Below are positions 1,919 through 64,000 of a stretch of DNA of 64,000 nucleotides, piece by piece; positions within the stretch are counted from its first letter, which is position 1; each line of letters starts with the position of its first letter. Location of the stretch: contig OZ260662.1 in NCBI GenBank assembly GCA_965285935.1, positions 87,854,001-87,918,000 on the forward strand, read 5' to 3'. This DNA comes from Ophelia neglecta (lineage: Eukaryota). Below the pieces are notes generated by a model. That model saw only the letters and a program-made list of their open reading frames with translations. It had not been told where the DNA came from and made no database searches. The position numbers were made by a program, and so were the translations under genes.

Positions 1919-3239
1919 CATGTTATATATAAACCATGACAAGCTTTTCCTAGAAAAACAAAGGTTTTAGAATATGAGGCACAATCCAAGATTTACCAAA
2001 TCCAAGTTTCCAGACTTCATTCATAAGGCCTGTACCATGACATGTTCCTTATTTGGCAACAGCAGCACCCAGCCGGTCAACATTGGGGAGATGTGGGCCC
2101 CACAAATGTGATCTCTAAAGTGTTGAACAGCAAACAGCGACATTGCCCATTAACAGAAATCCAAGGCGCAATACTACAGCAAATAGTATGGAATGGTTTG
2201 AATATAGCCTAGACAAACATTTGATATTCTTTGTTTCTAAAGACTAATAAAGAGTATCTTTTTAGAATATCTATTGGCATATTTCTAGCTAAAAAATCAC
2301 AAAAATAGTAGGACCGACCGCAATGAGCCTGTGTTTCAAGTTAGGGATGAAATAAAGAAAAAAAAATTAAGGGACAATGGGAACTTTAATGCTTTGGGCA
2401 TATGCTCCCACTGCTTTGATAGCAAGGCTGTAGGCCAAGGGATCAAGGCAGTTAGGGAGAGCTTATTACTCTTGCGGTATAGAAAATTCCCCTTAATGGC
2501 AGGTCCTATATTTGTTTAGTCTGTCATGATAGAATAAGCTACAAACTTGCATTGCTAAAGCCTGGCAAATTGGGAAGATTTGCTCAGTAGGAAAATGTAT
2601 TGGAGTATTATGGGTGATCATCCATATTGTACACCCACTGGAGATCCATGTTTGAGCTATAGATGCTAGGATGAGATGGTTTTGCTCCGGTGAGATGAGA
2701 AGAATGACACAGCTCATCGTCTAGTTTATGGATTTAAAGCTCTTTACCATTACAACATAAAAAGCCCATTTTTTGCTTTATGATAATGTTGAAAATAGGT
2801 GGGATTTAAAAGGTATATGCTTGAGGTCAATATTTTTACAAAGTACAGTCAACATGACATGTATTTGACAGATAAAGGCTTGACATGCTGAGTACTGGCA
2901 TAACCTGATAAGAGTATAACTACAATATACTGTATTACTATGGTGTAATTGATGTTTTAAAAAAATAACAATATGTATCACCAATGTCAGAAAAATAGAA
3001 AAAAGGTTGTTTGCTGTCACGGCTTGTCATATACTCTGTGTCAAAAGTCATATCTTTCACATTGTTTTAGAAAATCACAATGAAATATTTTTGTGTGCAA
3101 AAGTGTTATAAACACCTACGGCAAATACCAAACCCTTCAAATGAACCCTTTAACGGAAGATGAATAAAAAGGTTACTAGCGTTAGAAACAGTTAAGTGGG
3201 TGGTAGTGATTGCAGGTGTGACCTGGGCTACCTTATTGT
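1919..3239. repeat. Copy A of 1.32-kb direct duplication of non-coding host DNA (copy B 11628-12948)
   Basis: Constant 9709-bp offset at both ends. Three short ORFs have identical translations in both copies. No mismatch seen in spot comparisons. Confidence 0.95.
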
Positions 3240-4317
3240 TGTAACCTTGGGTAATTTTTCCCTCTACATTTTGTTAAGAGATAGGTAGGAATCAAGGTAA
3301 GTTGTTTTGTTGTTCAGTGATCGTTGTTTATTGTTTCAAGTTACACGCATATGCTTGGGACCCTTATATCTTTTGAACACCTGTGAACCAAACAAAATTA
3401 TATCTTTTACACACTAACACACTATTTATACACAAATATACACATCATTAATATCGTTTAAACATCATTCCATATTCATTCAATCACTTCTATTCACATC
3501 CTTTTAAACATCACTTCATATTCATTTAAACACTATTTCATATCCATTTAAACACTATTTTTCCAGAACACGCATTATCAATGAAACCTCAATTATATCA
3601 TACCCTGAATTGGGGTGTCCGAATGAGAGATGAGAGGCTCTGGGGAGGGCGTCTATTTCAGATCTATAAGTAACACAAACTGACTGGTTTAGATACAGCC
3701 AATATAAAATGCACTACAGTATCGGTCCTTATATAGGCCAACACATACGAAGTCAATGCCTTAAGTCATGTAGTACAGGGTCACATGCCTACACAATATA
3801 CAGTGTGGCAGTTATAGGTTTCTGTCAATACATGTGACAAAGGCCTAGACTAAATGTCAAGAGATATGTGCCAAGTACCAGCAAAATACTCTCTTCTCAA
3901 GAATACAGGTTATTTTATATACCCAACACACTATTAAAGACACAGTACAGTGTTTAAATAGACTTTCAATGTACTAAAAGTATAGATTTGGTATGACAAA
4001 CCTCAATTAGAATTTCCTATTAACAATTTCACATCCTTCCCTGTCAGAATCTTGAGAGCCTCTGATTTAAAACAGTTACACTTCCCACAAGGCAGCACAA
4101 AACCATTTAAGGGATCACATACCATTGGTCAGATCCAATATACAACACAGGTCAAGGTGACACTTTACATAAGGTAATACCACTTGTGCATAACTAATTA
4201 GCTGACACCACAGCTACATAATCATGATAATACTATACATACAGTTCATACACACACACACACTACTAGGTATACGGAAGTAGTAATCCAAATGGCTTAA
4301 GATCCCATCTGGTTACA
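3240..4317 (-). repeat. 3' LTR of the Gypsy element (1078 bp)
   Basis: 7-bp terminal inverted repeats TGTAACC/GGTTACA. Immediately preceded on the minus strand by a purine tract. Homologous (inverted) to 10152-11203. Confidence 0.92.
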
Positions 4318-4354
4318 TCCTCCTCCACCACGTGAAATGACGTCTCGGCATTTC
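4318..4354 (-). promoter_or_regulatory. Polypurine tract plus upstream hairpin of the Gypsy element
   Basis: Minus strand TGGTGGAGGAGGA directly abuts TGTAACC. Stem gaaatg/catttc at 4334-4354. Confidence 0.8.
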
Positions 4355-4785: not shown

Positions 4786-7700
4786 CTAGACCCACTCAAT
4801 CAGAACTCGAGCCTTCTTTGGATTCTCAGGAAATATCATATCTTTGATGAAATTTCTCATGCCTGTAATATATGTTCCATCACGGAGTTTCAAAGGTGGT
4901 TGTCTATTGCGGGTAGGGCGAGACCTTCCATCGCCATCCCGGGCCTTGACTACGGATGGTATACTGGCTTCATTCACTGGTTGATCTCCTTTCTCATCTG
5001 GGTCTGCTGTACCATTGTGTACTGCAGCTATTACCAATTTTTCTTTTGGTGTGCCCTGGTCTTCATCTGTACTTCTTTCAACAGTATCGTCTTCTTCCTG
5101 TTCGCCCTGTTTAGTTCTCATAACTGGGATATTTTCGACAACTGCCTTTCTGATAATGCTGGAACCTTCATTGGATGTGTCTTCTGCATTTTCTTGTATG
5201 ACCTGACTATCTATTCTGACTGGCTCTTGAGTATTCTGTACGTCCTCAGACCTTTCTATGGTAAAAAACTGAAAGTCTTCTTCAGAATCGTCATCTGTGA
5301 TTTCCTCTTGGTCTTCCCTATGAACATTAATTTCAACCAATGGCTCTGGTTCTGCAGGTTCTGTAGTCCGCTCCGAGACTTCGTCCACATTTTTGATTCC
5401 AACGGGCAATGGTTCTATTGGTAGCAAGTGATTCCTGTGTAGAGTTCTGACTGGCTCTTCCTCATCTGTTTCTTTCCTGACCTTGAATACTGGGATATCT
5501 GTGTTGGGCTGGTCCACTACCACATAAACATCCTCTTCCCATCTGTCATCCAGCTTGTGTTTTCCCGAAAATGCTAATTTCTTAACCAGTACTCGGTCAT
5601 CTTTTTCCAAGACAGCTCCTCGTATTCGCAGGTCGTATGCACTCTTTTGTTTTTCTCTTGATTTCTCTGCTGCTGCACTGGCGGCCTGATATGACTTCCT
5701 TAAATGGTGTTTCAGGGTCTCAACGTATTCACAGTATGAAGGGGTTTTTGGCTCATCTATACCAATGAGAAGGTCTATGGGCAACTTTGGGTTTCGACCA
5801 AACATCAAGAAGTGAGGTGAGTATCCAGTACTTTCATGTCTGGTACAGTTGTAAGCATGAGCCATCAGGTCGATGTAGGTCTTCCAATCAGCTTTCTCGT
5901 CTGCTTCTAGAGTGCCCAGCATGTTCAGCAAAGTCCTGTTCATACGTTCCGTCATACCATTGCCGCTTGGGTGATAGATGGAAGTCCTGGATTTGGCTAT
6001 ATTTGTGAGTTTGCACAACTCTGCAATCAATGCGCTCTCAAAATTAGTACCCTGGTCACTGTGTATCCTTTGGGGTAGGCCAAAGTATACAATAAACTTG
6101 TGAAGAAGTGCTTCAGCTGTTGTTTTTGCAGTCTGGTTTTTCGTTGGCACCGCTACGGCATATCTCGTAAAGTGGTCTGTTATCACCAATATACTATTGT
6201 GCCCTCCCTTTGAAGTTTCAAGTGATAGGAAATCCATTGACACGAGCTCCAATGGTTGAGAGGTCTTGATACTCACTAGTGGAGCACGTTGAGTAGTTGG
6301 CGACTTTCTTCTTAGGCATCGATCACACTTTGTAACCCAATCAGTCACATTCTTTGATAGATATGTCCAATAGTATCTCTCTTGGACAAGCTGTAGTGTG
6401 CGTTCAGATCCTGGGTGTCCAATATCATTGTGTAGTGCCTGCAAAATTGTGTTCTTAAGTGATTCTGGTATCACTATCTGAAATCGTTCTTCATCTTGTA
6501 TCTTTGTTCTTCTACACAACACTCCTCTTTTCATCACCAGTCTTCCACGTTGTCGCCATAAGGGACGCATGGCTTCATTACAAGGTAATCTCTTGTTGCT
6601 ACTCTGTGACATGTATTTGATCATGTCATTCAAGATAGGGTCAGCACGTTGCTTTAGTCGAATATTACGGGTAGAGGTGGCATCATCGATTGTTGGGTTT
6701 TCCGCCTCGAACAGTTGTTCGCAAACATTTGCAGACATGCATAAGCTGTTTATGAAAGATGGGGATATCTGACTTCTGTAGCAAACTGATTTGACAGATT
6801 CACCGTCAATCTGTTTTACTTCTGTCGTCTCTTGGTTGTCTGTGTTGTGAGGTAGCCTTGACAGTACATCAGCATCAATATTTTTCTTCCCTGGTCTGTA
6901 TCTAATGCTGAAGCTGTAGGTGGCAAGGGCTGCGGACCATCTGTGACCAGTCGCATCTAATTTGGCAGATGTTAGAATGTACGTCAATGGATTGTTGTCA
7001 GTCACTACAACAAATTCTGGTGCTCCATAAAGGTAGTCATGAAATTTTTCTGTCACTGCCCATTTCAGAGCAAGAAATTCCAATTTGTGGGCGGGGTAAT
7101 TCTTTTCAGACTTCGTCAACCCACGGCTGGCATACGCTATAACACGTTCTTTTCCATCATGGTTTTGGTACAAGATAGCTCCGAGGCCACTGACGCTCGC
7201 ATCTGTATGTAGGATGAATTGTTTGTCGAAGTCGGCATATGCCAGGATAGGTGGGGATGTCAGTTCATTCTTCAGTTTATCAAAAGCTGTTTGCTCTGTT
7301 TGACCCCAACGCCATGGCTTCGGTTCTGACTTCGACATTTCTCCCTTCTTCTTCTTCTTCTTCTTCTTCTGCTTAGCTCCTATCAGGTCATGCAGTGGTT
7401 TGGCGATCTGAGCAAATCTTGGGCAGAAACGACGATAGTAGCTAGCGAATCCAATGAATTGCATCAGCTCAAGCTGGTTTACAGGCGTTTTCCAACTGGT
7501 TATCCGCTCAATTTTGTCAGGGTCGGTCTCTACTCCTTCAGATGACACAATGTGGCCAAGGAACCTGGTTTTCTTTTTAAGGAAATGACACTTGGATGGT
7601 GCTAACTTCAGGTTGCTCTTCTCTATTCTTTCAAAAACTTCTCCAAGGTTGGCCAGGTGTTCCTCAAATGTCTTTGAGAAAACAATGATGTCGTCAAGGT

Positions 7701-9210
7701 AAATGACGCAGATGCGATGGTTAAGATCACCGAGCATATTTTCCATCATGCGTTGGTATGTGGCTGGTGCATTTGACAATCCAAAGGGTAATCGATTCCA
7801 TTCGTAGAAACCAAGTGGTCCGGCAGTAAATGCGGTGTATTGCTTGTGTTCCTCTTTCACCTCTATTTGGTGGTATCCACTTTTCATGTCTAAAACAGAG
7901 AAAAACTGTGCACCGTTTAAACAATCAAGTATGTCTTCTAACCTGGGCATTGCGTAGGCGTCTGGTACTGTCTGGAGGTTGAGCTTCCGGTAGTCAATAC
8001 ATAAACGAAGGGTTCCATTTTTGCGGCGAGCTATTACAATATTGGAAGACCATGGGCTCTTTGAGTGGCGAATCAGTCCGGCTCCCAACAGATCAGTCAG
8101 ATGTTCCTTCAGTTCTGTGTAGAGGTTAGGTGGTATCCTACCATAATGACTCTTGATGGGTTGGCTATTTATTAAATTTATCTCGTGTTCAACAGTCGGG
8201 TGTTGTCCAACATCTTTCGGATCTTTTGAAAAGATATGTGACCAAATCTTCAGAAATTCCCTCAACTCTTGAAATTGGTTCTCGGTTCCTGCAGAATCTT
8301 CATCACCATGGTCCAGATTTAAGTCTTCGGGTAAGTCGGTAGGTCGATCAATCTTTTCCTCCTGTGGTAATTCAACTGGTGACTCTATGGATACTGGCTG
8401 GAGTTCTCCTATGACAGCCCGGGGTGGGATGACTAAGGTTCTACTTGCGTGATTAGCAATAGTGACAGAAAACTGGCCACGCATATCACTCTGATAGTCA
8501 ATCACTATAGGCATGATTTCTGAAGTGTCTGGTAATGTAGATTTCTTCGTAGGCAACAGTAAAGCGGCACAATTCGGGTGTGGCAAAGCATGGGATAAAA
8601 ATCCTTTCAGGGTAATGGTCCGATTGGGTTGGATAGTCACATTGCCATGTTCTGCGCTCTTAATTATACCCAAACTATCAACATGCTGGAGGCTTCTCTT
8701 TTGGACTGACATGCAACGCATCGCCAAATACCAAGGGGTGGATAACGGGGCTGTTTGTAGGTATCTGGTGCCATACTGTTGTTCGGTTTGTTCCTTAACG
8801 TTTTTCAAGATGTTGGTTCCTAAGTTGATTGGCACACTTTTGCTAAAAGGGGTGTCTCGAGTGACCAAGAAAAGTGCTGGCATTCCCTCTGGTAGCGTAA
8901 GTTTGGGTACCTGTAGATACGCCTCAACAAACCCAAGGTACTCCAAAAGCTGTCCACTTGCGGTCTCGATTTCCAAAAGTTTATCCAATGGCTGGCAAGT
9001 TAGTCCACGAGGTTCGAAATGTTTCCGATAAAATGCTTCATTGACTGTTGAGATTCCAGATCCGGTATCTAGAAGTGTCTGGCTATCTACTGTGGTGTCG
9101 TCAAAAACAAATGTTATGGGTGTCACATTTGTTTCACCGACTAGCTGAGGAGCTGATTGTACTGGGCCTACTGGTGCGCTCCGGTATAAGTAGGTCCTTT
9201 CCGGTTTAAA
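4786..9210 (-). CDS. pol: Gypsy Pol polyprotein (aspartic protease, RT, RNase H, DDE integrase), probably expressed by -1 frameshift from gag
   Basis: 1446-aa ORF, open upstream to the slippery site. LLDTGS protease; LRLCIDYRKLN, LDMKSGYHQI, LPFGL and YLDD in RT; TDAS/ELLA-like/TDNNPL RNase H; HHCC zinc finger, SMDF, HSDQG and ERMNRTL in integrase. Confidence 0.97.
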   Translation of the reverse strand, partial: FKPERTYLYRSAPVGPVQSAPQLVGETNVTPITFVFDDTTVDSQTLLDTGSGISTVNEAFYRKHFEPRGLTCQPLDKLLEIETASGQLLEYLGFVEAYLQVPKLTLPEGMPALFLVTRDTPFSKSVPINLGTNILKNVKEQTEQQYGTRYLQTAPLSTPWYLAMRCMSVQKRSLQHVDSLGIIKSAEHGNVTIQPNRTITLKGFLSHALPHPNCAALLLPTKKSTLPDTSEIMPIVIDYQSDMRGQFSVTIANHASRTLVIPPRAVIGELQPVSIESPVELPQEEKIDRPTDLPEDLNLDHGDEDSAGTENQFQELREFLKIWSHIFSKDPKDVGQHPTVEHEINLINSQPIKSHYGRIPPNLYTELKEHLTDLLGAGLIRHSKSPWSSNIVIARRKNGTLRLCIDYRKLNLQTVPDAYAMPRLEDILDCLNGAQFFSVLDMKSGYHQIEVKEEHKQYTAFTAGPLGFYEWNRLPFGLSNAPATYQRMMENMLGDLNHRICVIYLDDIIVFSKTFEEHLANLGEVFERIEKSNLKLAPSKCHFLKKKTRFLGHIVSSEGVETDPDKIERITSWKTPVNQLELMQFIGFASYYRRFCPRFAQIAKPLHDLIGAKQKKKKKKKKGEMSKSEPKPWRWGQTEQTAFDKLKNELTSPPILAYADFDKQFILHTDASVSGLGAILYQNHDGKERVIAYASRGLTKSEKNYPAHKLEFLALKWAVTEKFHDYLYGAPEFVVVTDNNPLTYILTSAKLDATGHRWSAALATYSFSIRYRPGKKNIDADVLSRLPHNTDNQETTEVKQIDGESVKSVCYRSQISPSFINSLCMSANVCEQLFEAENPTIDDATSTRNIRLKQRADPILNDMIKYMSQSSNKRLPCNEAMRPLWRQRGRLVMKRGVLCRRTKIQDEERFQIVIPESLKNTILQALHNDIGHPGSERTLQLVQERYYWTYLSKNVTDWVTKCDRCLRRKSPTTQRAPLVSIKTSQPLELVSMDFLSLETSKGGHNSILVITDHFTRYAVAVPTKNQTAKTTAEALLHKFIVYFGLPQRIHSDQGTNFESALIAELCKLTNIAKSRTSIYHPSGNGMTERMNRTLLNMLGTLEADEKADWKTYIDLMAHAYNCTRHESTGYSPHFLMFGRNPKLPIDLLIGIDEPKTPSYCEYVETLKHHLRKSYQAASAAAEKSREKQKSAYDLRIRGAVLEKDDRVLVKKLAFSGKHKLDDRWEEDVYVVVDQPNTDIPVFKVRKETDEEEPVRTLHRNHLLPIEPLPVGIKNVDEVSERTTEPAEPEPLVEINVHREDQEEITDDDSEEDFQFFTIERSEDVQNTQEPVRIDSQVIQENAEDTSNEGSSIIRKAVVENIPVMRTKQGEQEEDDTVERSTDEDQGTPKEKLVIAAVHNGTADPDEKGDQPVNEASIPSVVKARDGDGRSRPTRNRQPPLKLRDGTYITGMRNFIKDMIFPENPKKARVLIEWV
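9149..9210 (-). promoter_or_regulatory. -1 programmed ribosomal frameshift signal (U UUA AAC plus putative pseudoknot)
   Basis: Heptamer at 9210-9204 is in phase with gag (CAT TTA AAC). pol lies in the -1 frame and is closed by TGA two codons upstream. Stems CCUACU/AGUAGG and GGAGC/GCUCC follow. Confidence 0.85.
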
Positions 9211-10148
9211 TGATCAACTATTACTCGGCAGCCTCGTTGTATGTGTCCATACTGACCGCATCGCCAACATCGGAGTGGTTCCCGGTCTGTCATCACTGGT
9301 CTCTGGCCTCTGCCTGCGCTCTGATTTGTCATTTGTGCAGTAGCATTCGAGTTTATACCAACTCTTGGCTGGCCCCTGCGACTCTGATCATTATCTGTTA
9401 CTGGCGTGTATGGATATGCTTCTGGATTCAATGGGATGTGGGCCTGCTCTGCCTGTCCGGACTTCTTCAGTTGAGTCACCTGCTGTTGTAGGTTTGCCAC
9501 CTGGTGCTTAAGTGCATCTATTTCTGAGCTTGATTGTGGTGTGGGATCCGCTATTATCTGTACCCTATTCGTAGTTTTCACCGTCTGCAATTCAGCTTCA
9601 ATTTGACGTAAGTGAATTCTTAAATGGTCGAAATCCTTTATGGTGTCAAATTTGTGGCGAGACCTCTCCTTGAGATTGTTTCTCAATCCGTACCAAAACT
9701 TGGTCCTCAGCATTTCACTAGTGGCTGTAGCATCTACGTGTCCTATCTTTTGGGCTTGTACCAAAATATCTTCCAATCGACAACCCCATCTAACTACCGT
9801 CTCTCCGTCCAGTTGCTTGGCATTATAGAAGTCTGCCAGTATCTCCTCTGTTGGCTGTACACTGCCGTAAAGTTGTTCTAGCTTTATCAGAAGGTCATCT
9901 AAACTAGCTGTCTCTCCAAGTCGCATAGCTACTCTACTTGCTCCTCCTCTAAGTGACTTGCGAACATGTTGTAGTAAAACTCTAGGGTCCATGGTGTGGC
10001 TATCTACCAGACAATTAACCTCGTAACGCCAAAGGTCATAGTCGGTATCCTTGTTCGGGTCTCCTGAAAATGGTGCTATTTTTGGTGGCAACGGTCTCAT
10101 TACATCACTGTTTTGGAATGATCTACCAGGGCCGGTCAAGGGTGTCGA
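9168..10148 (-). CDS. gag: Gypsy Gag (PNMA-like capsid plus zinc knuckle), N-terminally truncated
   Basis: FSGD..YDLWRYEV..SLRG.A capsid motifs and CWRCGQYGHIQRGC knuckle. The frame runs into a TAG at the junction with the inverted LTR (10149-10151). Confidence 0.9.
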   Translation of the reverse strand, partial: STPLTGPGRSFQNSDVMRPLPPKIAPFSGDPNKDTDYDLWRYEVNCLVDSHTMDPRVLLQHVRKSLRGGASRVAMRLGETASLDDLLIKLEQLYGSVQPTEEILADFYNAKQLDGETVVRWGCRLEDILVQAQKIGHVDATATSEMLRTKFWYGLRNNLKERSRHKFDTIKDFDHLRIHLRQIEAELQTVKTTNRVQIIADPTPQSSSEIDALKHQVANLQQQVTQLKKSGQAEQAHIPLNPEAYPYTPVTDNDQSRRGQPRVGINSNATAQMTNQSAGRGQRPVMTDREPLRCWRCGQYGHIQRGCRVIVDHLNRKGPTYTGAHQ

Positions 10149-10151
10149 CTA

Positions 10152-11203
10152 GTATGTATAGTATTATCATGATTATGTAGCTGTGGTGTCAGCTAATTAG
10201 TTATGCACAAGTGGTATTACCTTATGTAAAGTGTCACCTTGACCTGTGTTGTATATTGGATCTGACCAATGGTATGTGATCCCTTAAATGGTTTTTGTGC
10301 TGCCTTGTGGGAAGTTTAACTGTTTTAAATCAGAGGCTCTCAAGATTCTGACAGGGAAGGATGTGAAATTGTTAATAGGAAATTCTAATTGGGGTTTGTC
10401 ATACCAAATCTATACTTTTAGTACATTGAAAGTCTATTTAAACACTGTACTGTGTCTTTAATAGTGTGTTGGGTATATAAAATAACCTGTATTCTTGAGA
10501 AGAGAGTATTTTGCTGGTACTTGGCACATATCTCTTGACATTTAGTCTAGGCCTTTGTCACATGTATTGACAGAAACCTATAACTGCCACACTGTATATT
10601 GTGTAGGCATGTGACCCTGTACTACATGACTTAAGGCATTGACTTCGTATGTGTTGGCCTATATAAGGACCGATACTGTAGTGCATTTTATATTGGCTGT
10701 ATCTAAACCAGTCAGTTTGTGTTACTTATAGATCTGAAATAGACGCCCTCCCCAGAGCCTCTCATCTCTCATTCGGACACCCCAATTCAGGGTATGATAT
10801 AATTGAGGTTTCATTGATAATGCGTGTTCTGGAAAAATAGTGTTTAAATGGATATGAAATAGTGTTCAAATGAATATGAATAGTAGTGTTTAAATGAATG
10901 TTAATAGTAGTGTTTAAATGAATATGAAGTGATGTTTAAAAGGATGTGAATAGAAGTGATTGAATGAATATGGAATGATGTTTAAACGATATTAATGATG
11001 TGTATATTTGTGTATAAATAGTGTGTTAGTGTGTAAAAGATATAATTTTGTTTGGTTCACAGGTGTTCAAAAGATATAAGGGTCCCAAACATATGTGTGT
11101 AGCTTGAAACAATAAACAACGATCACTGAACAACAAAACAACTTACCTTGATTCCTACCTACCAATTAACAAAATGTAGAGGGAAAAATTACCCAAGGTT
11201 ACA
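10152..11203 (+). repeat. Inverted, 5'-truncated copy of the Gypsy LTR
   Basis: Reverse complement of 3240-4242. Lacks the first 75 bp of the LTR, carries ~49 extra bp in an internal repeat and several substitutions, ends GGTTACA. Confidence 0.93.
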
Positions 11204-11205
11204 AT

Positions 11206-11629
11206 TGTAACAACCGGTGGTCTCAGCGGGGTTTGAACTCACTACCCTTGGGTTTCCAGCCAACCACTCTACCAAGTTTGCCAAAGGAGTAACCCCTCTA
11301 GCCAAGCTAGTAGGAGTGTTGTGATCATGCACCAGTGGCCATGACCTGCTCATACATCTCTGTTACATTCTCCCCCCTACTGAGAACCACGTCCCCGTGG
11401 TGGTATGGCCACAGGACGGCTGTTGGGTTCGAGACTCTCGGTGAGACAGTCCCCTACTAGGCTCCATTGTAACAACCGGTGGTCTCAGCGGGGTTTGAAC
11501 TCACTACCCTTGGGTTTCCAGCCAACCACTCTACCAAGTTTGCCAAAGGGGTAACCCCTCTAGCCAAGCTAGTAGGAGTGTTGTGATCATGCACCAGTGG
11601 CCATGACCTGCTCATACATCTCTGTTACA
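11206..11629 (-). mobile_element. TRIM (non-autonomous mini LTR retrotransposon) with tRNA-like LTRs, Helenus-like
   Basis: Two 162-bp LTRs (11206-11367, 11468-11629; one mismatch seen) with TGTAAC...GTTACA ends. 100-bp interior with PBS TGGAGCCTAGTAGGGGA and PPT AGTAGGGGGGAGAA. A-box TGGCAAACTTGG and B-box GAGTTCAAACC in each LTR. Confidence 0.9.
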
Positions 11630-12948
11630 TGTTATATATAAACCATGACAAGCTTTTCCTAGAAAAACAAAGGTTTTAGAATATGAGGCACAATCCAAGA
11701 TTTACCAAATCCAAGTTTCCAGACTTCATTCATAAGGCCTGTACCATGACATGTTCCTTATTTGGCAACAGCAGCACCCAGCCGGTCAACATTGGGGAGA
11801 TGTGGGCCCCACAAATGTGATCTCTAAAGTGTTGAACAGCAAACAGCGACATTGCCCATTAACAGAAATCCAAGGCGCAATACTACAGCAAATAGTATGG
11901 AATGGTTTGAATATAGCCTAGACAAACATTTGATATTCTTTGTTTCTAAAGACTAATAAAGAGTATCTTTTTAGAATATCTATTGGCATATTTCTAGCTA
12001 AAAAATCACAAAAATAGTAGGACCGACCGCAATGAGCCTGTGTTTCAAGTTAGGGATGAAATAAAGAAAAAAAAATTAAGGGACAATGGGAACTTTAATG
12101 CTTTGGGCATATGCTCCCACTGCTTTGATAGCAAGGCTGTAGGCCAAGGGATCAAGGCAGTTAGGGAGAGCTTATTACTCTTGCGGTATAGAAAATTCCC
12201 CTTAATGGCAGGTCCTATATTTGTTTAGTCTGTCATGATAGAATAAGCTACAAACTTGCATTGCTAAAGCCTGGCAAATTGGGAAGATTTGCTCAGTAGG
12301 AAAATGTATTGGAGTATTATGGGTGATCATCCATATTGTACACCCACTGGAGATCCATGTTTGAGCTATAGATGCTAGGATGAGATGGTTTTGCTCCGGT
12401 GAGATGAGAAGAATGACACAGCTCATCGTCTAGTTTATGGATTTAAAGCTCTTTACCATTACAACATAAAAAGCCCATTTTTTGCTTTATGATAATGTTG
12501 AAAATAGGTGGGATTTAAAAGGTATATGCTTGAGGTCAATATTTTTACAAAGTACAGTCAACATGACATGTATTTGACAGATAAAGGCTTGACATGCTGA
12601 GTACTGGCATAACCTGATAAGAGTATAACTACAATATACTGTATTACTATGGTGTAATTGATGTTTTAAAAAAATAACAATATGTATCACCAATGTCAGA
12701 AAAATAGAAAAAAGGTTGTTTGCTGTCACGGCTTGTCATATACTCTGTGTCAAAAGTCATATCTTTCACATTGTTTTAGAAAATCACAATGAAATATTTT
12801 TGTGTGCAAAAGTGTTATAAACACCTACGGCAAATACCAAACCCTTCAAATGAACCCTTTAACGGAAGATGAATAAAAAGGTTACTAGCGTTAGAAACAG
12901 TTAAGTGGGTGGTAGTGATTGCAGGTGTGACCTGGGCTACCTTATTGT
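11628..12948. repeat. Copy B of the 1.32-kb duplication; continues into the apparent empty insertion site
   Basis: Matches 1919-3239. After ccttattgt it continues attcaacg rather than into the LTR. Confidence 0.95.
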
Positions 12949-15914
12949 ATTCAACGTGAACAAGAAGACAACATATATATACTCACGTTTTCGTTGTATT
13001 CCATCGATAACAAAGATGCAATTTGACGCAGTGCGTTTACTAGCAATACCAAAGTACAAGAGCCATTATTTGGGGGGAATGGGGGCCAAAATAGGGCAAA
13101 GTTCTTATAATAACAATATTGTTTTGATAAAAACACTGTACACAAATTCCTCAACCAAATAGTCACAGCCAAACCACACCCACAAATGAACTACCAGGCT
13201 AGCTGCGTCTCATAAAATAGATACATTATGGCAACTAATAAAGATTATAACGATAAATACATCACACACTCAAAGGCACGTTTTCATGTTCATACAAGAT
13301 TTATTTTAAGAAAAGATTCAATAGTTTGAACTACCATGTTTTCTATACTGAAATAACATAAACCGGAAATAAGTTGGTAGCAAATCTAAATAAAGTAGTT
13401 CTCGACTAGCGTATGAATACTTTTTACTTAGCCCCCGGCTTCATGTATTCTGCGCTTCTTTTTCGTTCTTATCCTCTTCGTGCTTCGTCCTATATATATA
13501 TGCCTCGTTGCTCGTTGTGAGTTCTGCATTGTGCAGGTGTTAAATTTGGCCAGTAAGCAGAGAAGGACAAACAAAATTTATTAGACTTGGAGGGTGGAGT
13601 CGGCTACATATGTTCCAGCAGTCTGATTTTGATGTGTTGCACAGGCAGCGGACAACATTAGTGCTCGGGCTTAGCACCACAGTAGCCATGTAGCTGTAAA
13701 TTGCATATGTGAAGAAGTAGTATGTGAGGCCCACTTGTAACACTGGGCCGCACTACGTCGTCACACTCGCAACATACTGCTATAGCTAACTTCGTCATCA
13801 CTAATGTTTTCAGCTGCCTGTGATGTGTTGGTAGTTTTCGAAGTACCGGGGTATATCACAACACTGGTATCCCGGACTGGTATACGTACGTGAGACTGGT
13901 CACTGGGAAGAGTTCTACTGAATTATGGGTCTAACACTTCACCCTGCAGAATATTATATCAAAAAAAAATTCCAATTTAGCCCAAAAAATATGTCTGTAA
14001 AATTTAGTCGTAAACTAATTGTGAAAGGTCCTAGAATAATTTGCCCATATATGCTTTTAACTCGGACAATAAAGCCTATTCCAATTTATTCTCATCTAAA
14101 TGAAGGAGTTTCCCACAGGCTTGATAATCCAGATCCTCTAAATGCAGATGCTATAGCCTACATGTATGTATGCAAAATTATTCTTTTGATATTGACTGAT
14201 TGAGGTTAAACTTTTCCATGCTAACAGCGCAAACGGCAATGAAACAGCTCAAAGAGGCTTTTTACATTATACAACATGAAAACATTTCCTAAGACAAAAT
14301 AGAAAAATAAAAAAACAGACATGCCTTTCGTTATTAAATAAACGTGGTCTTAATACTTTTGATTAGTGGACTTTGCACATTCAAATGAGCAAGTTTTTAT
14401 TTTGATTTGAGTGTTTGGCGGTAACATCTAGAGGCAAACCGTTCCACAGTGTTTCGTTTCGTTAGGAATCCGTGGTTTATACCAGGCGCAGCTACTTTTA
14501 CAAGCTTTCCTCCTCGACCACCAGAGTGCGACAAAAATATTACGCAACATACTCACAGTGTCAGCAGCGTGGAAAACCTAGTCTGCACAATTGTAAAATA
14601 AACACTGACAAGGGTTTATTAAAGGTTTAGGAATTAGTCGTCAGCGGTTGTAAGTTATTGTGCGTGTTCACGGTTTATGGTAATAATCTCTGTTTTGAGA
14701 GGACAAACTTAAAATGACTTGGTTATTAACATAAGTAGACACAAAAATGGCTAATTCAGTAAAGACCAGAATTTACCTGTGACCATGTAGTAAAATTGTG
14801 ACAGGAGACGAGGTATATCTAGAAGGCTATATATATAATCTGGTAATAATATATTACTGTTCTAGATATATAAATTTGTTATATATAGATTGTTGTAATT
14901 AAGACTGGATTAAGGGGGAGTATCTTTCATACTTTGGTAGCAAATTGTTTCGCCTCTAATCCGGTATGAGTACTAGTAATTATCGCATCTATTAAATCTC
15001 CTCTGATACAAGTAACGCTACAGGTCTGTAACTGAAAAATTAACCGCAAAGATAGAGAATCACTGCTCTTCAACTAAGTTGACAAAATAAAGTGCAACTA
15101 ACCCTGTCAAAGAATCAGATCACTCTAAAATCAAAATAGCTAGATTCTCATTATTCTTTGCCATCTATGACAGTCTACTATATATATAATGAAATCGGGG
15201 AGGGGGGGGGGGGGGGCTTACTCTGCATAAAGTCAGAAGGGGTTCTTCCCGTGGCACTTCAATCCCATAACCTTTCCCAGATGAAAAATTAGCTGTATTT
15301 TTTGCAATTATCTTTAAAATGAGATAGTTTAATAGAACATACTTCTAACACATGTGATGTAGATACTTTTCTTATTATTTTTGGGGTGGGCGGCTGCTAT
15401 TTGTTAAAAATGCCTGCCCCATAACATTAACAAAATGTGTTTTGACAACCCTTAAGCCATAATGCCAAAAAGGTGCTCCATTCAGCCTGGAGCATCCTAG
15501 CCTTATACAGAGTGAACCCCCAGGTAATAAAATATGCAAGAAATAAAATTAGCACTTTGAGGATTGAATGATTGTTTTATGTTTCAAGTAACAATTATGA
15601 AAGCACACTCAGGCAATTTAATAATACATGTAAGTTGTAGGTACTTGAGAAACAGTCAATTTCAACATAAAATTATTGCAGTTCATAAAATAAGATGAGT
15701 ATAATTAAGATTCCAAGATTAGTGCAGCAATATACATTTACATGTTTTCAGTTAATGCTACTTTTCAGTGTTACTATTTAGTTGCAAATATGTACCAGTG
15801 AGATCATAATTATAGAAGCCTGTTATGAATATACATGCACTAGTCAGTTTTAAAAATATTCACTATTTTATGTCTTATTTCAAATTTAATTTTTTTTTAG
15901 CATAGTCTTGTAAA

Positions 15915-22102: not shown

Positions 22103-22414
22103 ATAACATAATAGATATCAAGGTTTTCCTTCCTGTAGGAAAAACAATAATTGTCAGGGATGATCATGTGTATTTATGACATTTTAATACTAATAATTTT
22201 GTGAATTGATGGTAACAAATACTTATTAATACACATTAAGGCCAGACTTAGCTACCCACTGGCCTTGTAAGTACACTTTAGTTGCTATAACAAATCAGAG
22301 CTATCTATTCCAATGGGTATAGACATCTCTGTACAAACCTGCTATTTTGTTAGTAAAAAATGAATGCACCAATCTATGCAGGGTAATTGGTGCATTAATG
22401 TACAATTAACATCA

Positions 22415-22985
22415 AAGGGATTATGTCTCAAAACAGGGTTAATGTCTCAAAACCCATGTTTAATGTCTCAAAACCCATGTTTAATGTCTCAAAACCCATG
22501 TTTAATGTCTAAAAATCAGGGATAATATGTCAAAACAGGGATGATGGTCTCAAAACCAAGGACTATGTCTCAAAACCAGGGTAATGTCTTAAAATCAGGG
22601 ATAATGTCCCAAACAGTAGATAATGTCACCAAACCACAGATAATATGTGAAACCAGAGGTATTGTCTTAAAACCTAGGACAATTTCCCAAAACTCATGGT
22701 TGTGTCTCAAAACCAGGGATAATTAATCAAACCAGGGATTATGTCTCAAAGCAGGTGATTCATCTCAAAAATCAAAGAAATATATTGTCTCAAAGCCAGG
22801 GATAAAGGGCAAATGTCTTGATACCAGGAGTAAGGTCTCATAACCAGGGATAATGTCTCAAACCAAGGGCATTGTGTCAAACCAAGGGCATTGTCTCAAA
22901 ATCAGGGGTAATGTCTCAAAATAAAGGGCCTTGTCTTAAAACCAGGGGCAAAGTCTCAATATCAGGGACAATGACTCGAAACCTT
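22415..22985. repeat. Degenerate ~21-bp minisatellite (aaaccagggataatgtctca)
   Basis: More than 20 diverged tandem units with no unique spacers. Confidence 0.9.
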
Positions 22986-23054
22986 GACACAGGCAGTGAA
23001 AGAGCTATGGTCAGAATTTAAAAGAAATTGCTCCTTCATTGGTGCACTGGTTCT

Positions 23055-26764: not shown

Positions 26765-28844
26765 ATCTCCATGCTTAATGTAGATTTTAAGATAGCATCC
26801 AAAGCCATAGCCGAAAGAATAAAATCCAAACTTCCCAAACTCATCCACAACAATCAAGTTGGCTACGTTAAGGACAGGCATATCTCAAGCAATATAAGGT
26901 CAATATCAGACATATTATTCTATACAAAAGCAGTGAATATTCCAGGGATTTTACTCAGTATCGATTTTGAAAAGGCTTTCGACTCGGTGGATTGGTTGTT
27001 TTTGAGGGCAACATTGGAAAAATATAATTTCGGCAAGTCACTTATAGGGTGGGTTGATCTGTTCTATACAGATGCTATGAGCTGTGTCATCAATAACGGG
27101 CACATGTCGAGCTATTTTTCTTTGGGTAGAGGGGTGAGACTTATCGCCCTACCTGTTTGTGCTGGTAGCAGAAATCCTTGCCTGTAGCATCAGACAAAAT
27201 CCAAGAATTGTGGGTATAGAAGTGGGGGGCTCTGAAGTAAAGTTACTGCAGTACGCTGACGACACAAATGGTATGGTGCGAGATGTTCAATCAGCGAGGT
27301 ATTTTTTAGATACGGTGGAGGAGTTTGGTCAACACTCGGGTCTCAGATTAAATCGGGACAAAACGGAGGCTATCTGGTTGGGGTCATCTAGAGGTAGCAA
27401 CGAGAAACCTCTCGGTATATATTGGCCAGTTAGACCGCTAAAAGTGCTGGGCATTTACTTTTCTTATAATGAAGAACAAAATAATGACTTGAATTATCAA
27501 AAGAAAATTGACAAATGTAAGAATATACTGAATGAGTGGAAAGGTAGAGGTTTGACCATGATAGGTCGAGTTATTGTATTGAGAGCTTTTATTGTATCGC
27601 AGTTTCTGTACACTACGCAAGCTCTGTACATGCCCGAGACGTATATACAGATGGTGCAAAACTTAATTTCTGACTTCATTTGGTTTGGTAAAAGGCCGAA
27701 ATTGAAAAAAGAGGTGCTAGTGAGAAAGAAGGAACATGGAGGGCTAAATGTTCCTTGCTTTAAAAGTATGGTTGAGTGTTCTTATATAAAGTGGCTCAAA
27801 AGAATGATTATGGAAGAACAAAGCACATGGAGATACTTTTTAGATTATTATATGAAATCGTGCAATGTCAATCTGTATGCTCTTTTATGCTCAAATTATG
27901 ATTGTAAAGACATTCTTTTAGAAGGAAAGGTGCCCAAATTTTACGTATGTATGTTAGCATGTTGGTTCAGATATGGGAACACAAATATTCCAAGGAAATT
28001 CTGTCTGTTTTACAATAGAAATATCCTGGTAGATGGCAAGATAATATTTTATAAACAATTCTATGATGTAGGAATCAGATATGTATGGGATGTGTGTAAT
28101 CAATATGGTGACATAATATCCTTTTGCGACCTGGTACAGAAATATGGCTTAGACAGTAAAAATTTGTTGCACTGGATGGGTATTGTAGATGCGGTTAGCA
28201 AATCTGACATTGTATATGAAGAAGCATTAAGCTACGAAACGGAGGATACCAAATTTTTGATTAACCAGGTTCCTTTAGAGTGTGTAACAACAAAAGAGAT
28301 ATATGCTGAAATATTTGATAGAAACGGTATAAACAAAGATTATGCGCCAAGAATTACAAAGTATGTGAAAGCCAAGGAAGGAGTTTGTTTATCGCAAGTC
28401 TTCAAACGAATATATACTGGACTTGCAGACACCAGACTAAGAGAGTTTCATGACATTTCAGTAAATAATTATTGGTTGTTCAAATGGGGTTTAAAGGAGC
28501 ATGATATGTGCACCTTCTGTAATGAGGAGGTTGAGGATCTACATCATATGTATTGGGAGTGTGTTGTTGTACAGGGTTTTTGGAAGGAATGTGAGAAACG
28601 AGTATTTAAAGAAAAGCTAAATGTAGAAGACATTTTCTTTGGAAGAGATGAGAGTTTGTTTTTTACTCTTTCTTGTTTAGCCAAGAAGTATCTGTATACC
28701 TGTAGACTAAAAGACGCCTTTCCTAATTTTGAGGCCTACAAAAGAGTAAGTATGCATCAAAGGGAAATAGAAGTGTTAATGTCAACAACTGAAAAGCAGA
28801 ATGCAGGGCATGTCAACAAATGGGCTGGATTCACAATAGCATGA
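26765..28844 (+). pseudogene. LINE ORF2 fragment (RT plus CCHC), frameshifted
   Basis: GVR[QGDP]LSPYLF has lost about 11 bp at 27140/27141, splitting the ORF into 26771-27187 and 27159-28844. Confidence 0.9.
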
Positions 28845-34010: not shown

Positions 34011-35245
34011 TTTATTAAATATAATATTGTGATCTATGACGTTTTTACGGCTGGGTATTTATTCATTGTTGAGATCCTTCTAGCTAGAATAGCGACGTTA
34101 TAAACATAAAGATATTAAAGCAGTTTGCAATTGTGTCTTACGAGTTTACCACATATAGATAATAAATTTATCAGTAACAGAACTATAACGTTTTTCGTCT
34201 ATAACGTAATCTACTTTTTTCCATATAATAATATAATATTGCATAAATTTATAAATATCTTGTATTCATCGACAACTGAATATATGGACACGCATGTTAG
34301 GTGTTCACCTTGGGCTGGCTGTTGTCGGGGGGGGGGGGGGGGGGGAGGGGGTTGGAGTGACTTCCTAGTAATTTTATTCTACCACTAGTTAGGAGTGGCA
34401 TCGCGCTCTTGCCTCCGTTGCGTGGGAGTTCAGGTCGGTTGATCTCAACAAGAGTGAGTAATATTTAAACTTTATTCCTGACACAACTATCTATCTTCTC
34501 GATCTCCAGGTATATATGTATTGCTCCTGGTTTATTTTTACAGGAGGCTCTCACACCAGCTAGCAATAAACACCCATCCCTACTGAAAGTTCCTTTGACA
34601 TATAGTGAAATGGTTAGAGTGGTCAAAATAGATATTTTATGAGTCTGGTCAAGCTGATAAGAGCTTATGTGTTTGTTTTTTCCCCTACTACGATCTCAAG
34701 CGCATCCGCAAACTGAAGCTGCGATGTATTTATAATTTCAACGTTTGCACATAATAGAATTATTACCCAATTAAAAGTGACGTGCAGAGGGCGTGCCCTT
34801 TCTTGCTCATTACCAATATCATGGTAGGAATGTAGAAACAGCCAAGCCTTGAATGTTTATCATATACATGTATAAGCAAAACAGGTCCTCGGTTCACTTT
34901 ATACGAGTGGTTTGATTGTAATACGATGGGTAGAACCTGGGTTCTGTGTAACCCTGCAACTTTAATTAGGAACATAGATGAATGACAATGATTTTTTGAT
35001 GGGTTATCTGAACGATGATCTAACAAGATAACGTTTCCACTGGCAGAACTTCATGCGGGAAGTGTTATTTTTACCATTTGACTAATGAAAATCCGTTTTC
35101 GCCATGACGGTTTGCCATTAAACAGGATGTTAGTTATAGGACATTAACAGCAAGGGAAAGAGAAGACACTACATCACAAATGGTACATTTCGAATAAATC
35201 TTTAATAGTATTCTCCGATCTTTTCAACAGAAAGCAGCTACTATA

Positions 35246-35422
35246 CAGTGAAACCTGTGAATTAAGACCACCCAAGGGACTTGAAAATACTGGTCTGATT
35301 TCAGAGGTCTTCTGTTTAGACGGTTATTCCACATTGAAAGTATATATTATGTTCATCATATTGGTGGTCTGGATTGACAGGTGGTCTGATTATAGAGGAG
35401 GTCCTTAAGGCAGGTTTCACTG
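35246..35422. mobile_element. Tc1/mariner(pogo)-type MITE, copy 1
   Basis: TA-cagtgaaacctg...caggtttcactg-TA. Confidence 0.85.
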
Positions 35423-35668
35423 TACTTTCTTATAACGCGGAGATAAAGCACCTCTAAAAAGGTTGCTTCGTAAAAGCATTACATGAATTTACTCAAAAAA
35501 AGGAAAGCAGAAATAAAACAACATTAGGAATAAAATGGTTACCCTCCACGTCCTCGAAGATATTCGTACCCCGCTTCTATGCATAGCTCCTACTTACTCC
35601 TACACACTTCAAAGGTCAACTCTTCAAGCTAGCATTATACTATTTATTCAAATGACCTTTAAAGACTA

Positions 35669-35845
35669 CAGTGAAACCTGCCTTAAAGACCACCTCTATA
35701 ACCAGACCACCTGTTAGTTCATACCACTTATATGAGGATCATTTGTATAATTTCAGTGAAGAATAACCTGTTTTAACAGACCACCTCAGAAAGCAGACCA
35801 GCTTTTTCCAGTCCTTTTGGTGGTCTTAATTCACAGGTTTCACAG
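35669..35845. mobile_element. Tc1/mariner-type MITE, copy 2 (opposite orientation to copy 1)
   Basis: TA-cagtgaaacctg...caggtttcacag-TA; interior is the diverged reverse complement of copy 1. Confidence 0.85.
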
Positions 35846-36220
35846 TACTCATATTTCTTAAAGCATTTCATTTGAAATTCCGCCGTCCGCCGCGGTTTGG
35901 TCTATATAAAAATCTTTCTACCACAGGTAGCTTCACCTCTTGTTACGTTGGACCACTAGGCATATGAACGATTATTTAAAGTGTAATTTATGCAACTTCT
36001 TTGACTTGTTAAATAGTATTCCTGTTTTAGAGACGGGGGCCCAAACCGGGCCCAAATCCACATTCACCAGACATTCACCAGACATTCATATACCTACTTA
36101 TTACCATACACTGGTTCTAGATGCATGTTTGTTGGGTGATGCATTCTTCATACACCTTAAATATCTATTCAACATTAGATAAATGACAACGATTTAACAC
36201 TCTATGTAACTTTAATAATA

Positions 36221-36374
36221 CAGTGAAACCTGCCTTAAAGAACACCTCTATAACCAGACCACCTTTTAATTTAGACCACTTATATGAGGATCATTTTGTA
36301 TACTTTCAATGTGAAATAACCTGTTTTAACAGACCACCTCAGAAATCGGTGGTCTTAATTCACAGGTTTCACTG
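36221..36374. mobile_element. Tc1/mariner-type MITE, copy 3 (internal deletion)
   Basis: TA-cagtgaaacctg...caggtttcactg-TA; similar to copy 2. Confidence 0.85.
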
Positions 36375-51437: not shown

Positions 51438-54400
51438 CTATCGACATAGTCTGTCGAGGAATCTGTTGGCCACTTGGGAGACCTCGTTCTGGTTTCTCAG
51501 TCGGAAGACGAAATCACTATCGGGATCAGACGCTATACTGTTCAACTCCTGCATGTTTGGATTATCGCCCAACGCTGTGGAGATGAAACACAATGCTTAT
51601 TATCTCACCTTAATTTCATGAAACCAATCACTGTTTTGACGGTTTCGAAGCAACTGTTACAGGCCATTTATACTACTTCATTGCTATATCTTTACATTAA
51701 AACATTCATGAATTGAAAAGTCGAATAGAATTGAAACACTGAAAATAGAACTGTATGAGGTTTAAACTCCAAAATACATGTAGATGGCGGTAGATTGCCC
51801 GCTGTTCTTCATTTGTTTACATCTAGCACAACTGCGTGTACTTCATACCTATAGAGTAGATTTGGATGCCCTGAGCCTTGGCATTCGTGGCGACCCTGAT
51901 GGTGTTGCTCTCCTGTACATTAGAGTAGCCGTCGGTCACCAGGACCACCACATTGTCCACGGCGGTACGGTCACCTCGGTGATTCCTAAAGGATAACACA
52001 CCAAAGAAACATTTAAGTGAACCGAAAGAACGGATACTAACATTCAATTCCTTCAAGTGGCAATTCGAAGCAATGATTAAGCCAACCTATATGTCTAATT
52101 GGTGTAGTATTTTTCTATTTAGTTTAAACGATTGGAGTATCTTTGTCATTAGACGTTTAATATAGGAACCTGAAATGTTCCTGTAGCATCCTTGATAATC
52201 CAGCTTGAGTATTGGTACGACCACCCTGAAATAAAGAAATTGGAACTAGTGAACATCATAGTCAAAGCCTGTTTATAGTAGCAATACAGAACGCTTGAAT
52301 AATCTGTGCTAATATGGAAGTAGAATATCAGTATGTATATATGAAGTAGTACCTGATGGTAGAAGTTGAGCGCGTTGATGACTGCGTCCGGATTGCCAAT
52401 ATACTGGTTGAGGAAAAACTCTCCATTCACCTCAGTGGCATAGGTCACAGCCCCAATACGCACGGCGTCAGATCTACAGATTATGACAAAAAATAAAACA
52501 TAATACTTGCATCTCCAATACTAGAGATTAGACTGCCCACTCCCCTTAACCCCCTATTTAATGCTATAAAAACACACACAGATCACACCGTTTTTGGCGA
52601 ATGGCCAGTGTATATACTGTTGATATATTTGGATACGCGTACAACCTCATGTATTCGATGCATACCGTACGATAGTCACGTGTCAAAATAAGATCATGAC
52701 GCGTGGATAAAATGAATTTCATTTGATTGTGGATAAGAAAACCGTTGGACCGACCTAACAGCAAGTCCGTAGGCGACTGCCTTTGAGAAGGACATAATCA
52801 GACGATATTCAGCCTCCACGCTGCCGGACAAGTCCAACACGAATACCAGGTCCATCTGGCGGTTACAACCTGTTCATGTGTGCGCAAAAATGACAAAATT
52901 TTGCTCAATTTAAAAGATAAACTCAACGTCATTATGTCTTCAGTCCAATGGCGCTAATAAACATTCTTCGATCAGTAAACTGGGGTGTCTTAGCGACAAA
53001 TTAAAGCGAAAGGGTGCAATAATAATATAGTATAAGCTAACAATACACCGACTAAGCCTTTTTTTTCTTTTTTAACACACATCTTACATAAACATACTTT
53101 CTTTTTACTCAATTCTACTTTAAAGGATATTACGTGGTATCCACAATTAACAAACTCTAGTCTTACGTCTGTCACAGTTGATTCCGGTAAAGCCGGTCGT
53201 GCATACACAGAAGTAACGTTTGTAATCGTCCACACAGCGCGCACCGTTACGGCATGGATTGCTCGCGCACTCATCTACGTCTGAGGAAATGTAAATATAT
53301 TACTGTTATCGAGTTCTTACTCGAATCATATAGACATGTAATGGTAAAACATAGGATAAGTCCTCTATATACAAAGAAATGAGCTCATCGTGCATATTCC
53401 CTACATTGACATACAGACATTTTATTTTACAATCATCACCAACAGAATATCTAACTTATTTCCTCTCGTAATGACACACAGAGGAGAATAATTCTTTAAT
53501 ATATTTTTTCTCTACTCCTGTTTGTTCCTACCATTGCAAGTTCCGTCAGACAGCTGGTCGACTCGTCCACTGAGGTCCGAGTATTTCTCCACCGCAAATA
53601 CGTTTAGATCAGTCGGCTCGCTTGCGATGCCCTCTATTTCCAGCTGGTTGACAAAAGTCTTGCCCACAGCCACCGCCATCAGGAGAATTCCGTCCACCCG
53701 ACATTTTATGGCCTCGGGGATGGTGTTGGTGGGGTCAATGTTGGAGTTACCGTCAGTGATTACGATAGCAATGTTTCTGGCATCTTCTCTGTATCCGTTT
53801 GCCGATGTATAGCCGACAGTCCTGAGCATGCGCAAAGCAGAAGGCGTGTTTGTCCTTCCGCCCAAGAAGGGCGTTCCGTGGATGGCCTGAATGACATCTT
53901 GTCGTCTGGTGTATTTGTTGAGGGGGAAGTGAAGGAAGGCTTGGTCGCTCCAGTAGATCAATCCTACCCTTGTTCTGGAAGGATGAATGTCAAAACGCTT
54001 CACTATGTCCGCTATGAAATTCTTAACAATAGGGAACCGTTCGACTCGTATACTGCCTGAACTGTCCAAGACAAAGTAGAGGTCAATTATTCCTGTGCAA
54101 CCTGAAAACAAAAATCCAGATATTGTATGGTATCGAATAGAAGGCAAAAAACTGATCTTTTCAGCTAATATGTAAGTTCTAGAAACTAATGGTACCAAAT
54201 GGTCGCAGGCTCTACCAGTCTTATCAAAGCAGATATTAAAGTTATATATAGGCCTATATAATCTACTATTGTATTAAAAATTTAACACTACTTCATCAGG
54301 AAAAGTTACCGTAGCGTATGCTTTTATGTACAGTAGTACGGTATAAATACTCTGGATGGCATTCAGCAGGTAAAAACCTCACAGACACACGCAACCGTAA

Positions 54401-63656: not shown

Positions 63657-64000
63657 CTGAAAGTTGATTACATTTATAATATTCATTTTGAGTGAATTTC
63701 TAGAAGAATGATTCCCAGAAAAAAATTCCTTTGGCTATAGGGCCTATATGCTCACCTATAAAAGCCATGCTATGTGATATAGACATTAACAACTGCAGGG
63801 GTGGGTTAGTATCATGCGCCAGCCCACAAACCGATTGTAAGCAATGGTGGGGTGGACATGTGGATACCTTAGAATTACGCATAGCTTTAATCCGATGCTA
63901 GGTTGCCTATAAAGACATGCATTTTTTATGCCAATTACCAAACCCGTTCATTCAATAATGATTTTCCCGAGGCTAGGATGGATGCCATATTACTATTTAC

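Follow-up and report, generated by a model that had tools for sequence, protein, structure and literature searches.

In retroviral aberrant integration, as described in the accessible part of PMC5041404, integrase attaches one viral DNA end to the host, and the free 3' end is extended by host polymerase on viral or host templates through short homology. The aberrant proviruses described there carry host duplications of hundreds to thousands of bases and extra viral DNA in either orientation. They were obtained from HIV-1 with strand-transfer inhibitors or a weak integrase, and from ASLV end mutants. The locus analyzed here resembles these proviruses in its one normal end, its other end met through short homology, its extra element DNA, and its large host duplication. 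Unlike the cases in that part of the paper, it is a natural case in an assembled animal genome, and the appended DNA comprises a probable second Gypsy template and an unrelated non-autonomous element, a TRIM, at exact LTR ends.

When Ty1 cDNA was captured at double-strand breaks, cDNA-only bases were left on 40/56 captured Ty1 3' LTRs, and complex insertions of 2–4 fragments were formed by end joining (PMC11372161, accessible part). The locus likewise contains LTR pieces with bases present in cDNA only and is a multi-fragment insertion. However, the Ty1 captures in that text took place at induced yeast breaks with no integrase-made end, whereas the window has one clean end and its sister composites have 4-bp TSDs.

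The TRIM resembles Helenus (TRIMp3; Kojima 2024, PMC10886601) in its length below 1 kb, box A and box B motifs in the LTR, 4-bp TSD, tRNA-Lys PBS, and a Gypsy element as the proposed helper. In the accessible part of that paper, helpers were inferred from PBS likeness, and end-joined composites are not among its descriptions. Adjacent elements, among them rare inverted LTR-LTR junctions, were likewise described as TE dimers made by double insertion (McGurk and Barbash 2018, PMC5932611). In the text available from that study the target duplication lies inside the junction, whereas the junctions in this genome contain primer-side bases and have the TSD outside only. The 2-LTR and autointegration circles of bioRxiv 2022.09.25.509424 likewise consist of LTR cDNA joined end to end by host repair, but head to tail and within one molecule, whereas the window junction is tail to tail and between families.

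A literature search by title and abstract start, with subscription papers largely outside its coverage, found no cross-family end-joined composite. The mechanism is of a known kind, and its cross-family, recurrent form in a natural genome appears to be new. The locus also indicates that aberrant integration with a kilobase duplication, known from drug- or mutant-perturbed retroviruses, occurs naturally.

Anatomy of the composite insertion

The window, which is the whole 64-kb stretch of DNA analyzed here, belongs to a 762-Mb assembly. Its composite insert is bounded by two copies of a host segment. The first copy, segment A (1921..3239, forward strand), is identical at 1319/1319 positions to the second copy, A' (11630..12948, forward strand), which continues into downstream host DNA with no Gypsy remnant. 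No third full copy of segment A was found in the assembly when 471 bp of the segment were tested. The locus lacks a 4-bp TSD around its Gypsy and TRIM ends and has the 1319-bp duplication instead.

The Gypsy element lies on the reverse strand. Its 3' LTR (3240..4317; 1078 bp, TGTAACC...GGTTACA) joins the host by its U5 end at 3239|3240 (site X) and carries a 48-bp deletion compared to other full-length copies. The adjoining polypurine tract (4318..4330) is the one that precedes the 3' LTR of intact copies. The pol frame (4786..9213) encodes 1475 aa in the order RT, RNase H, and integrase, and the 3' part of gag (9168..10144) gave a weak PNMA match. Compared to an intact copy, the break lies about 1490 nt downstream of the expected 5' LTR end, and the element's 5' LTR, PBS, leader, and gag start are missing.

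The window's family showed the pol order, LTRs, tRNA PBS (18/18 match to tRNA-Trp), and 4-bp TSD of Ty3/Gypsy elements. TSDs (CCTG, CTAC, TGTC, and ACAA) were present in four of the six copies with both ends read. The other two, L049 (C1:116.91 Mb) and L050/L071 (C1:0.34 Mb), are young copies without a TSD, and no large flank duplication was found when looked for at either. In L050, about 890 bp of the element's own 3' internal sequence precedes the 5' LTR, as from a circle.

At the broken gag, a fold-back junction away from the LTR terminus contains a 7-nt filler, TCGACTA (10145..10151, forward strand). It is followed by an inverted Gypsy LTR (10152..11203, forward strand), which starts at U3 position 76, extends precisely to the U5 end, and whose haplotype is unlike that of the 3' LTR. 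The two Gypsy LTRs of the window differ by 8 substitutions in 1003 columns and by 48-bp and 1-bp indels. LTR pairs of four other Gypsy copies showed 0–1 differences, and the pair of L051 showed 9/855. The inverted LTR was nearest to the 5' LTR of L051 (4/781), with alleles in common, and 5 of its 8 alleles were common to that LTR or to the LTRs of L049/L050. Since the host duplication has 0 differences and the TRIM LTRs 1, yet the Gypsy LTRs 8/1003 with indels, two LTR templates rather than ageing explain the divergence. Judged by these alleles, the inverted LTR is likely to have come from a second Gypsy cDNA. Autointegration was rejected as its source, since the piece begins at U3 position 76 after the filler and not at the LTR terminus.

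The filler 7-mer occurs once inside the Gypsy element. An 8-nt match to the filler plus its next base was the single occurrence in 60.9 kb of host DNA scanned; it lies at 13402..13409 (forward strand), 453 bp right of the end of A', and is suggestive of a host donor.

The TRIM, also on the reverse strand, consists of a 3' LTR (11206..11367, 162 bp), an internal region (11368..11467, 100 bp), and a 5' LTR (11468..11629) whose U3 end abuts the second copy of the host segment at 11629|11630 (site Y). It is non-coding, has a total length of 424 bp (162 + 100 + 162), and shows the two LTRs, PBS, and polypurine tract expected of a TRIM. The internal region begins with a spacer A at 11467, followed by the PBS at 11466-11449, and ends with the polypurine tract at about 11380-11368. 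The two LTRs have 1 difference. The PBS matched 18/18 the 3' end of an intron-bearing Lys(UUU)-type tRNA, and the family's 4-bp TSD and PBS to a tRNA 3' end agree with what is described for Helenus in animals.

Pol III box A and box B motifs are present in the LTR at about 11283-11230, and this pattern, written for the analysis from the general consensus, was reached by 1/5000 shuffles. The TRGCY and GGTTC motifs of the Helenus paper were each matched 4/5 in the LTR. The LTR gave no Rfam tRNA match and no ARAGORN tRNA gene, and its alignment scores to five genomic tRNAs were near or within the shuffle range. Three short TRIM motifs had 0 matches in one Helenus supplement file (PMC10886601), outside which the consensus file may lie. 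By its sequence features the TRIM appears Helenus-like, and a published family may still match in other supplements. On contig C8, about 60 tandem copies with a 1.93-kb period (G000:C8:12578159-12736381) contain an intron-bearing tRNA-Lys(UUU)-type gene that matches the TRIM PBS. The acceptor stem of this tandem gene is unusual.

The two host boundaries are of different kinds. Site X is a clean join with a microhomology score of 0, and at site Y the TRIM-host join shows an imperfect 13-nt homology with host 1909-1920. This homology was reached by 6/20,000 random host sites under a scoring scheme chosen after it had been seen. The clean end, the short-homology end, the large host duplication, and the appended element DNA are the hallmarks of aberrant one-ended integration.

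The tail-to-tail junction and its AT spacer

The assembly reads GGTTACA-AT-TGTAAC at 11197-11211. Position 11203 is the U5 end of the Gypsy-family LTR, and position 11206 is the U5 end of the TRIM 3' LTR. The first-pass annotation had proposed that these ends are separated by AT only, and both the sequence and the family-wide LTR ends confirmed it. The Gypsy U5-end 14-mer terminates 17/17 genomic LTR matches, and one copy carries a substitution. An exact search of the genome for the TRIM-end pattern returned 2 sites, the window junction and one TRIM-TRIM dimer, with 0 control matches. Two family-defined LTR ends that stand 2 bp apart are not there by chance.

The AT spacer (11204..11205, no strand) matches the two bases with which the primer side begins in either element. 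On the TRIM side, the AT at 11466-11467 is indeed the 1-nt spacer plus the first PBS base, as had been read before. On the Gypsy side, intact 5' LTRs are followed by ATGG in 6/6 copies among the 17 LTR ends. Each side thus explains 2/2 bases, and AT is equally the Gypsy element's own spacer and first PBS base. Going by sequence, AT can be one base per side, a two-base overlap, or wholly one element's. The AT bases by themselves are weak evidence, since AT makes up 9.5% of host dinucleotides. The earlier proposal that an unprocessed TRIM cDNA end was ligated to a Gypsy end stood in part: unintegrated, unprocessed ends are most likely, but an origin of AT specifically from the TRIM found no support. 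The earlier reading had also missed the inverted orientation of the LTR at 10152-11203 relative to its own gag-pol and 3' LTR, AT as the Gypsy spacer and PBS base, and the perfect 1319-bp host duplication around the insert.

It had been reasoned that AT after intact Gypsy 5' LTRs would mean a TRIM simply inserted at the LTR/PBS boundary. AT is literally found there, but the nested insertion fails. After a concerted nested insertion, the far side of the TRIM should show CAAT and the Gypsy PBS, but TGTT and host DNA are found there. Since the CAAT duplication and the Gypsy PBS are both absent, nested insertion is unlikely. No TSD was found flanking both sides of the TRIM, and none within the junction. 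Nor does any junction of the parallel composites, L057 and L067 among them, contain its own TSD, which double insertion would demand (PMC5932611).

A TRIM target preference for AT was rejected as well. TRIM U5 ends counted by an exact 15-mer numbered 174 (141 + 33; 41 outside the matches listed), and AT follows 69 of them. By hand classification, 46 of these 69 continue into the TRIM PBS, 7 into a related internal sequence, and 16 into neither. The 16 comprise 10 composites or PBS remnants, 3 host TSDs, and 3 of unassigned class. AT therefore comes first at no more than 6/111 host-abutting TRIM U5 ends, as classified by hand, below its 9.5% share in the host, so TRIM copies do not generally insert after AT.

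The 7 ends with a related internal sequence belong to a sister subfamily in which TRIM-type LTR ends are followed by a different, common internal sequence with an altered PBS start (C5:25727712, C5:74487748, C5:86458157, C7:23200687, C7:54338720, C7:82250299, and C8:28690696). TRIM U5 ends with a near-identical flank at six other places represent one insertion amplified within another repeat (C2:1265276, C2:119101356, C2:119114433, C2:120708695, C2:122089983, and C9:434117).

Parallel TRIM composites in the genome

Thirty loci taken from the 49 TRIM matches listed gave 26 distinct, best-matching young sites. An exact 4-bp TSD was found by script at 13 sites, in keeping with dispersed copies with short TSDs, and a TSD with one mismatch at 1. 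The ends of 4 were unplaced by the script, and 8 had no TSD match; 7 of these 8 are composites, chimeras, or arrays, and one (L017) is unexplained. Among the matches listed, 5/26 young sites, the window included, are composites that keep primer-side bases. About one in five best-matching TRIM sites is thus composite, and TE annotation would misread these as nested insertions. Composites with clean TSDs occur at three other places on two other contigs. The bases that they retain are a record of cDNA end structure for elements that have not been studied at the bench.

In L057, two TRIMs lie tail to tail across ATCAT within one TSD, TATG. One side explains 2 and the other side 3 of the 5 bases. 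Neither L057 end was trimmed, so integrase did not make this junction, and L057 serves as the clearest control. In L067/L068, a TRIM and a second Gypsy family are joined head to head across TG within one TSD, TACA. In L066, a 5-nt homology connects PBS remnants with the gag sequence of a fourth Gypsy family, which lies in an inverted duplication, within TSD CAAA; a reading of its middle part as a DNA transposon was rejected on this identification. In L108/L109, a PBS remnant and a third Gypsy family's internal sequence meet through 4 nt of homology within TSD CACA. A join to an LTR end was rejected for L108, since the joined sequence lies about 600 bp upstream of that LTR.

The remaining sites without a TSD match are a tandem array with a fold-back, the L072 chimera, and L017. 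L072 switches from a third-family Gypsy LTR to the TRIM at their common LTR-end/PBS start, within TSD TGTA. Outside the 26 sites, L114 contains a second-family Gypsy solo LTR and a TRIM solo LTR within TSD GCAC, with 20 nt between them. This linker (L114:2963-2982) shows a 16/18 match to the 3' end of tRNA-Ser(GCT) with CCA, a primer seen in neither element.

Antisense Gypsy coding sequence is reached from TRIM U5 ends with 6–20-nt PBS remnants in L066, L110, and L085/L087. At L085:1500-1520 and L087:1500-1520, which are the same site, the TRIM LTR and 17–19 nt of PBS are followed by the antisense Gypsy sequence. At L118:2958-2984, the TRIM LTR and 17–19 nt of PBS are followed by a purine tract and another LTR-like start. 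The PBS length at L085, L087, and L118 is about that of a plus-strand strong stop. No bounding TSD was established at L110 (none in 13 kb), L085/L087, L113, L116, or L118.

TRIM arrays with an internal LTR-AT were found in L058 and L077. TRIM copies with a U3-side fold-back are L058 (C5:71.58 Mb), L061 (C1:73.62 Mb), L062 (C2:28.44 Mb), and L120 (C9:12.32 Mb). They carry an inverted LTR piece at the left, with the geometry of the window's inverted Gypsy LTR. In L061 and L062 each terminus is a U5 end, and both copies carry 4-bp TSDs. L112 is a tail-to-tail look-alike whose left 1.5 kb had no match among the fetched loci. L126 was treated as a chance occurrence, since it matches none of the LTRs tested and the control pattern gave 4 matches.

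Origin of the junction and candidate helpers

The junction, whose two bases agree with the primer-side sequence of each element, probably arose in a single aberrant insertion, when free cDNA ends that had not been trimmed were connected by host end-joining or by a polymerase that jumped between templates. The same botched insertion likely also produced the 1.3-kb host duplication. End-to-end joining, within one molecule, is also the junction chemistry of 2-LTR circles. Integrase would first have attached a Gypsy cDNA, by its U5 end, to the chromosome at 3239|3240. The gag-broken Gypsy end would not have been integrable and would have been extended or ligated by host repair, first with the 7-nt filler, next with the LTR end of a second, inverted Gypsy cDNA, and then across A/AT overhangs into a whole TRIM cDNA. 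Finally, the far end of the TRIM would have primed on the look-alike host sequence 1319 bp upstream, and the empty site would have been copied and thereby duplicated.

The anatomy, the identities, the absence of a 4-bp TSD, the microhomology, the different LTR templates, and the parallel composites are direct observations. From this structure we infer the order of events, the enzymes, and a nuclear location. Against the account, a trimmed end placed 2 nt beyond the other element's LTR would also give the spacer, the private changes of the window 3' LTR could mean an older insertion, L110, an antisense join of the same class, showed no bounding TSD in 13 kb, and contigs of three sequencing runs are continuous across 1921 (see below).

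The TRIM and the window's Gypsy could instead have been in one particle, where RT would have bridged their plus-strand ends at the palindromic AT prior to nuclear entry, with the remaining steps as above. Retroviral RTs can jump on 2-nt overlaps, the antisense joins in L066, L110, and L085/L087 are as expected from priming on co-packaged Gypsy RNA, and L072 is a third-family LTR and TRIM chimera within a TSD. This sequence of events is nevertheless unlikely. The two elements use different primers, the copied LTR piece runs from U3 to U5 unbroken, which implies a DNA template and not genomic RNA, and the neighbouring filler may have been copied from host DNA at the target.

A half-site integrase reaction has a lower probability still. 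A trimmed TRIM end would have attacked Gypsy DNA 2 nt past the 5' LTR, or the target of a trimmed Gypsy end would have been a TRIM circle or array, hit 2 nt inside the PBS, with the rest lost in repair. The ATGG after intact Gypsy 5' LTRs and the L058 and L077 arrays would both suit such an attack. It requires, however, that the attack fall on a single specified base within a target of 9.5 kb or 0.26 kb, its concerted form is excluded by TGTT in place of CAAT, and a trimmed end cannot yield the L057 junction.

It is very improbable that an ordinary Gypsy provirus at 3239 was later rearranged by replication-fork template switching, by which its own 5' LTR was inverted, a chromosomal TRIM traversed, and the flank duplicated. 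The non-terminal junction with filler at 10145-10151 and the microhomology at site Y are marks of host repair and, like the private changes in the 3' LTR, speak for such a history. Against it, switches would be needed at three exact LTR termini, the inverted LTR alleles are common to other copies and not to the 3' LTR, and A' continues into an empty site that does not differ from A.

Three runs of one sample contained 78–82% of the sampled words. Contigs broke at 3239/12948 in 3/3 runs, consistent with a branch into the Gypsy element, and the same contigs were continuous across 1921, the point at which a TRIM branch is predicted. The depth over the duplicated segment A was 1.0–1.4x that of the flanks in these runs. 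Junction-spanning records and RNA datasets with the sampled words were absent among the matches listed, and the internal junctions are known from the assembly. The least credible explanation is an artefact of assembly, caused by merged haplotypes or by reads that are chimeric or folded back. The perfect duplication, the unbroken contigs at 1921, and the lack of a junction-spanning record among those matches could be cited for it. Against it, a fold-back read predicts identical arms whereas these differ by 8 substitutions and 48 bp, the junctions stand on exact termini, the contigs branch at 3239/12948 in every run, and similar clean-TSD composites occur elsewhere.

The first-pass annotation had taken the junction as physical evidence that both elements shared a particle or intasome. 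This was unsupported at the window locus, where an imperfect microhomology and the 1319-bp duplication were found instead of a 4-bp TSD. The different primers (Trp versus Lys-type) and the inverted LTR from another Gypsy template were further evidence against it. A single 4-bp TSD does bound a Gypsy and a TRIM end in L067/L068, L114, and L072, all of which involve other Gypsy families.

TRIM helpers are usually guessed from PBS or LTR likeness, and the single-TSD composites are physical evidence of the ends that one integration reaction accepted. They name two Gypsy families other than the window's. The first 7 PBS bases are common to the TRIM and these second and third families. Because of these shared bases and the single TSDs, the second and third families appear to be better candidates for TRIM helpers than the window's Gypsy.

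A broader reading can be advanced tentatively, as a possibility that we hold somewhat below even chances: the Pol III-type TRIM of this animal may be promiscuous and ride with several Gypsy families, and fusion of its untrimmed cDNA ends to Gypsy cDNA, or their priming on Gypsy RNA, may be routine. The fused multi-family molecules would then enter the genome as a unit, often through a single intasome with one TRIM end and one Gypsy end. If this is true, fossil junctions would reveal helper-passenger pairs and exact cDNA end structures from assemblies.

Other features were observed in the window. A 568-aa frame at 27138-28844 (forward strand) matched an RT C-terminus and zf-RVT; the piece is LINE-like, truncated at its 5' end, and has poly(A) runs after it. 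Two exons on the reverse strand (53512-54273 and 62986-63699) each contain a von Willebrand factor A domain. Furthermore, tandem arrays of 20 bp and 33 bp, as well as two inverted-repeat elements, lie at 22405-22990, 59515-59976, 35244-36345, and 61674-62392.
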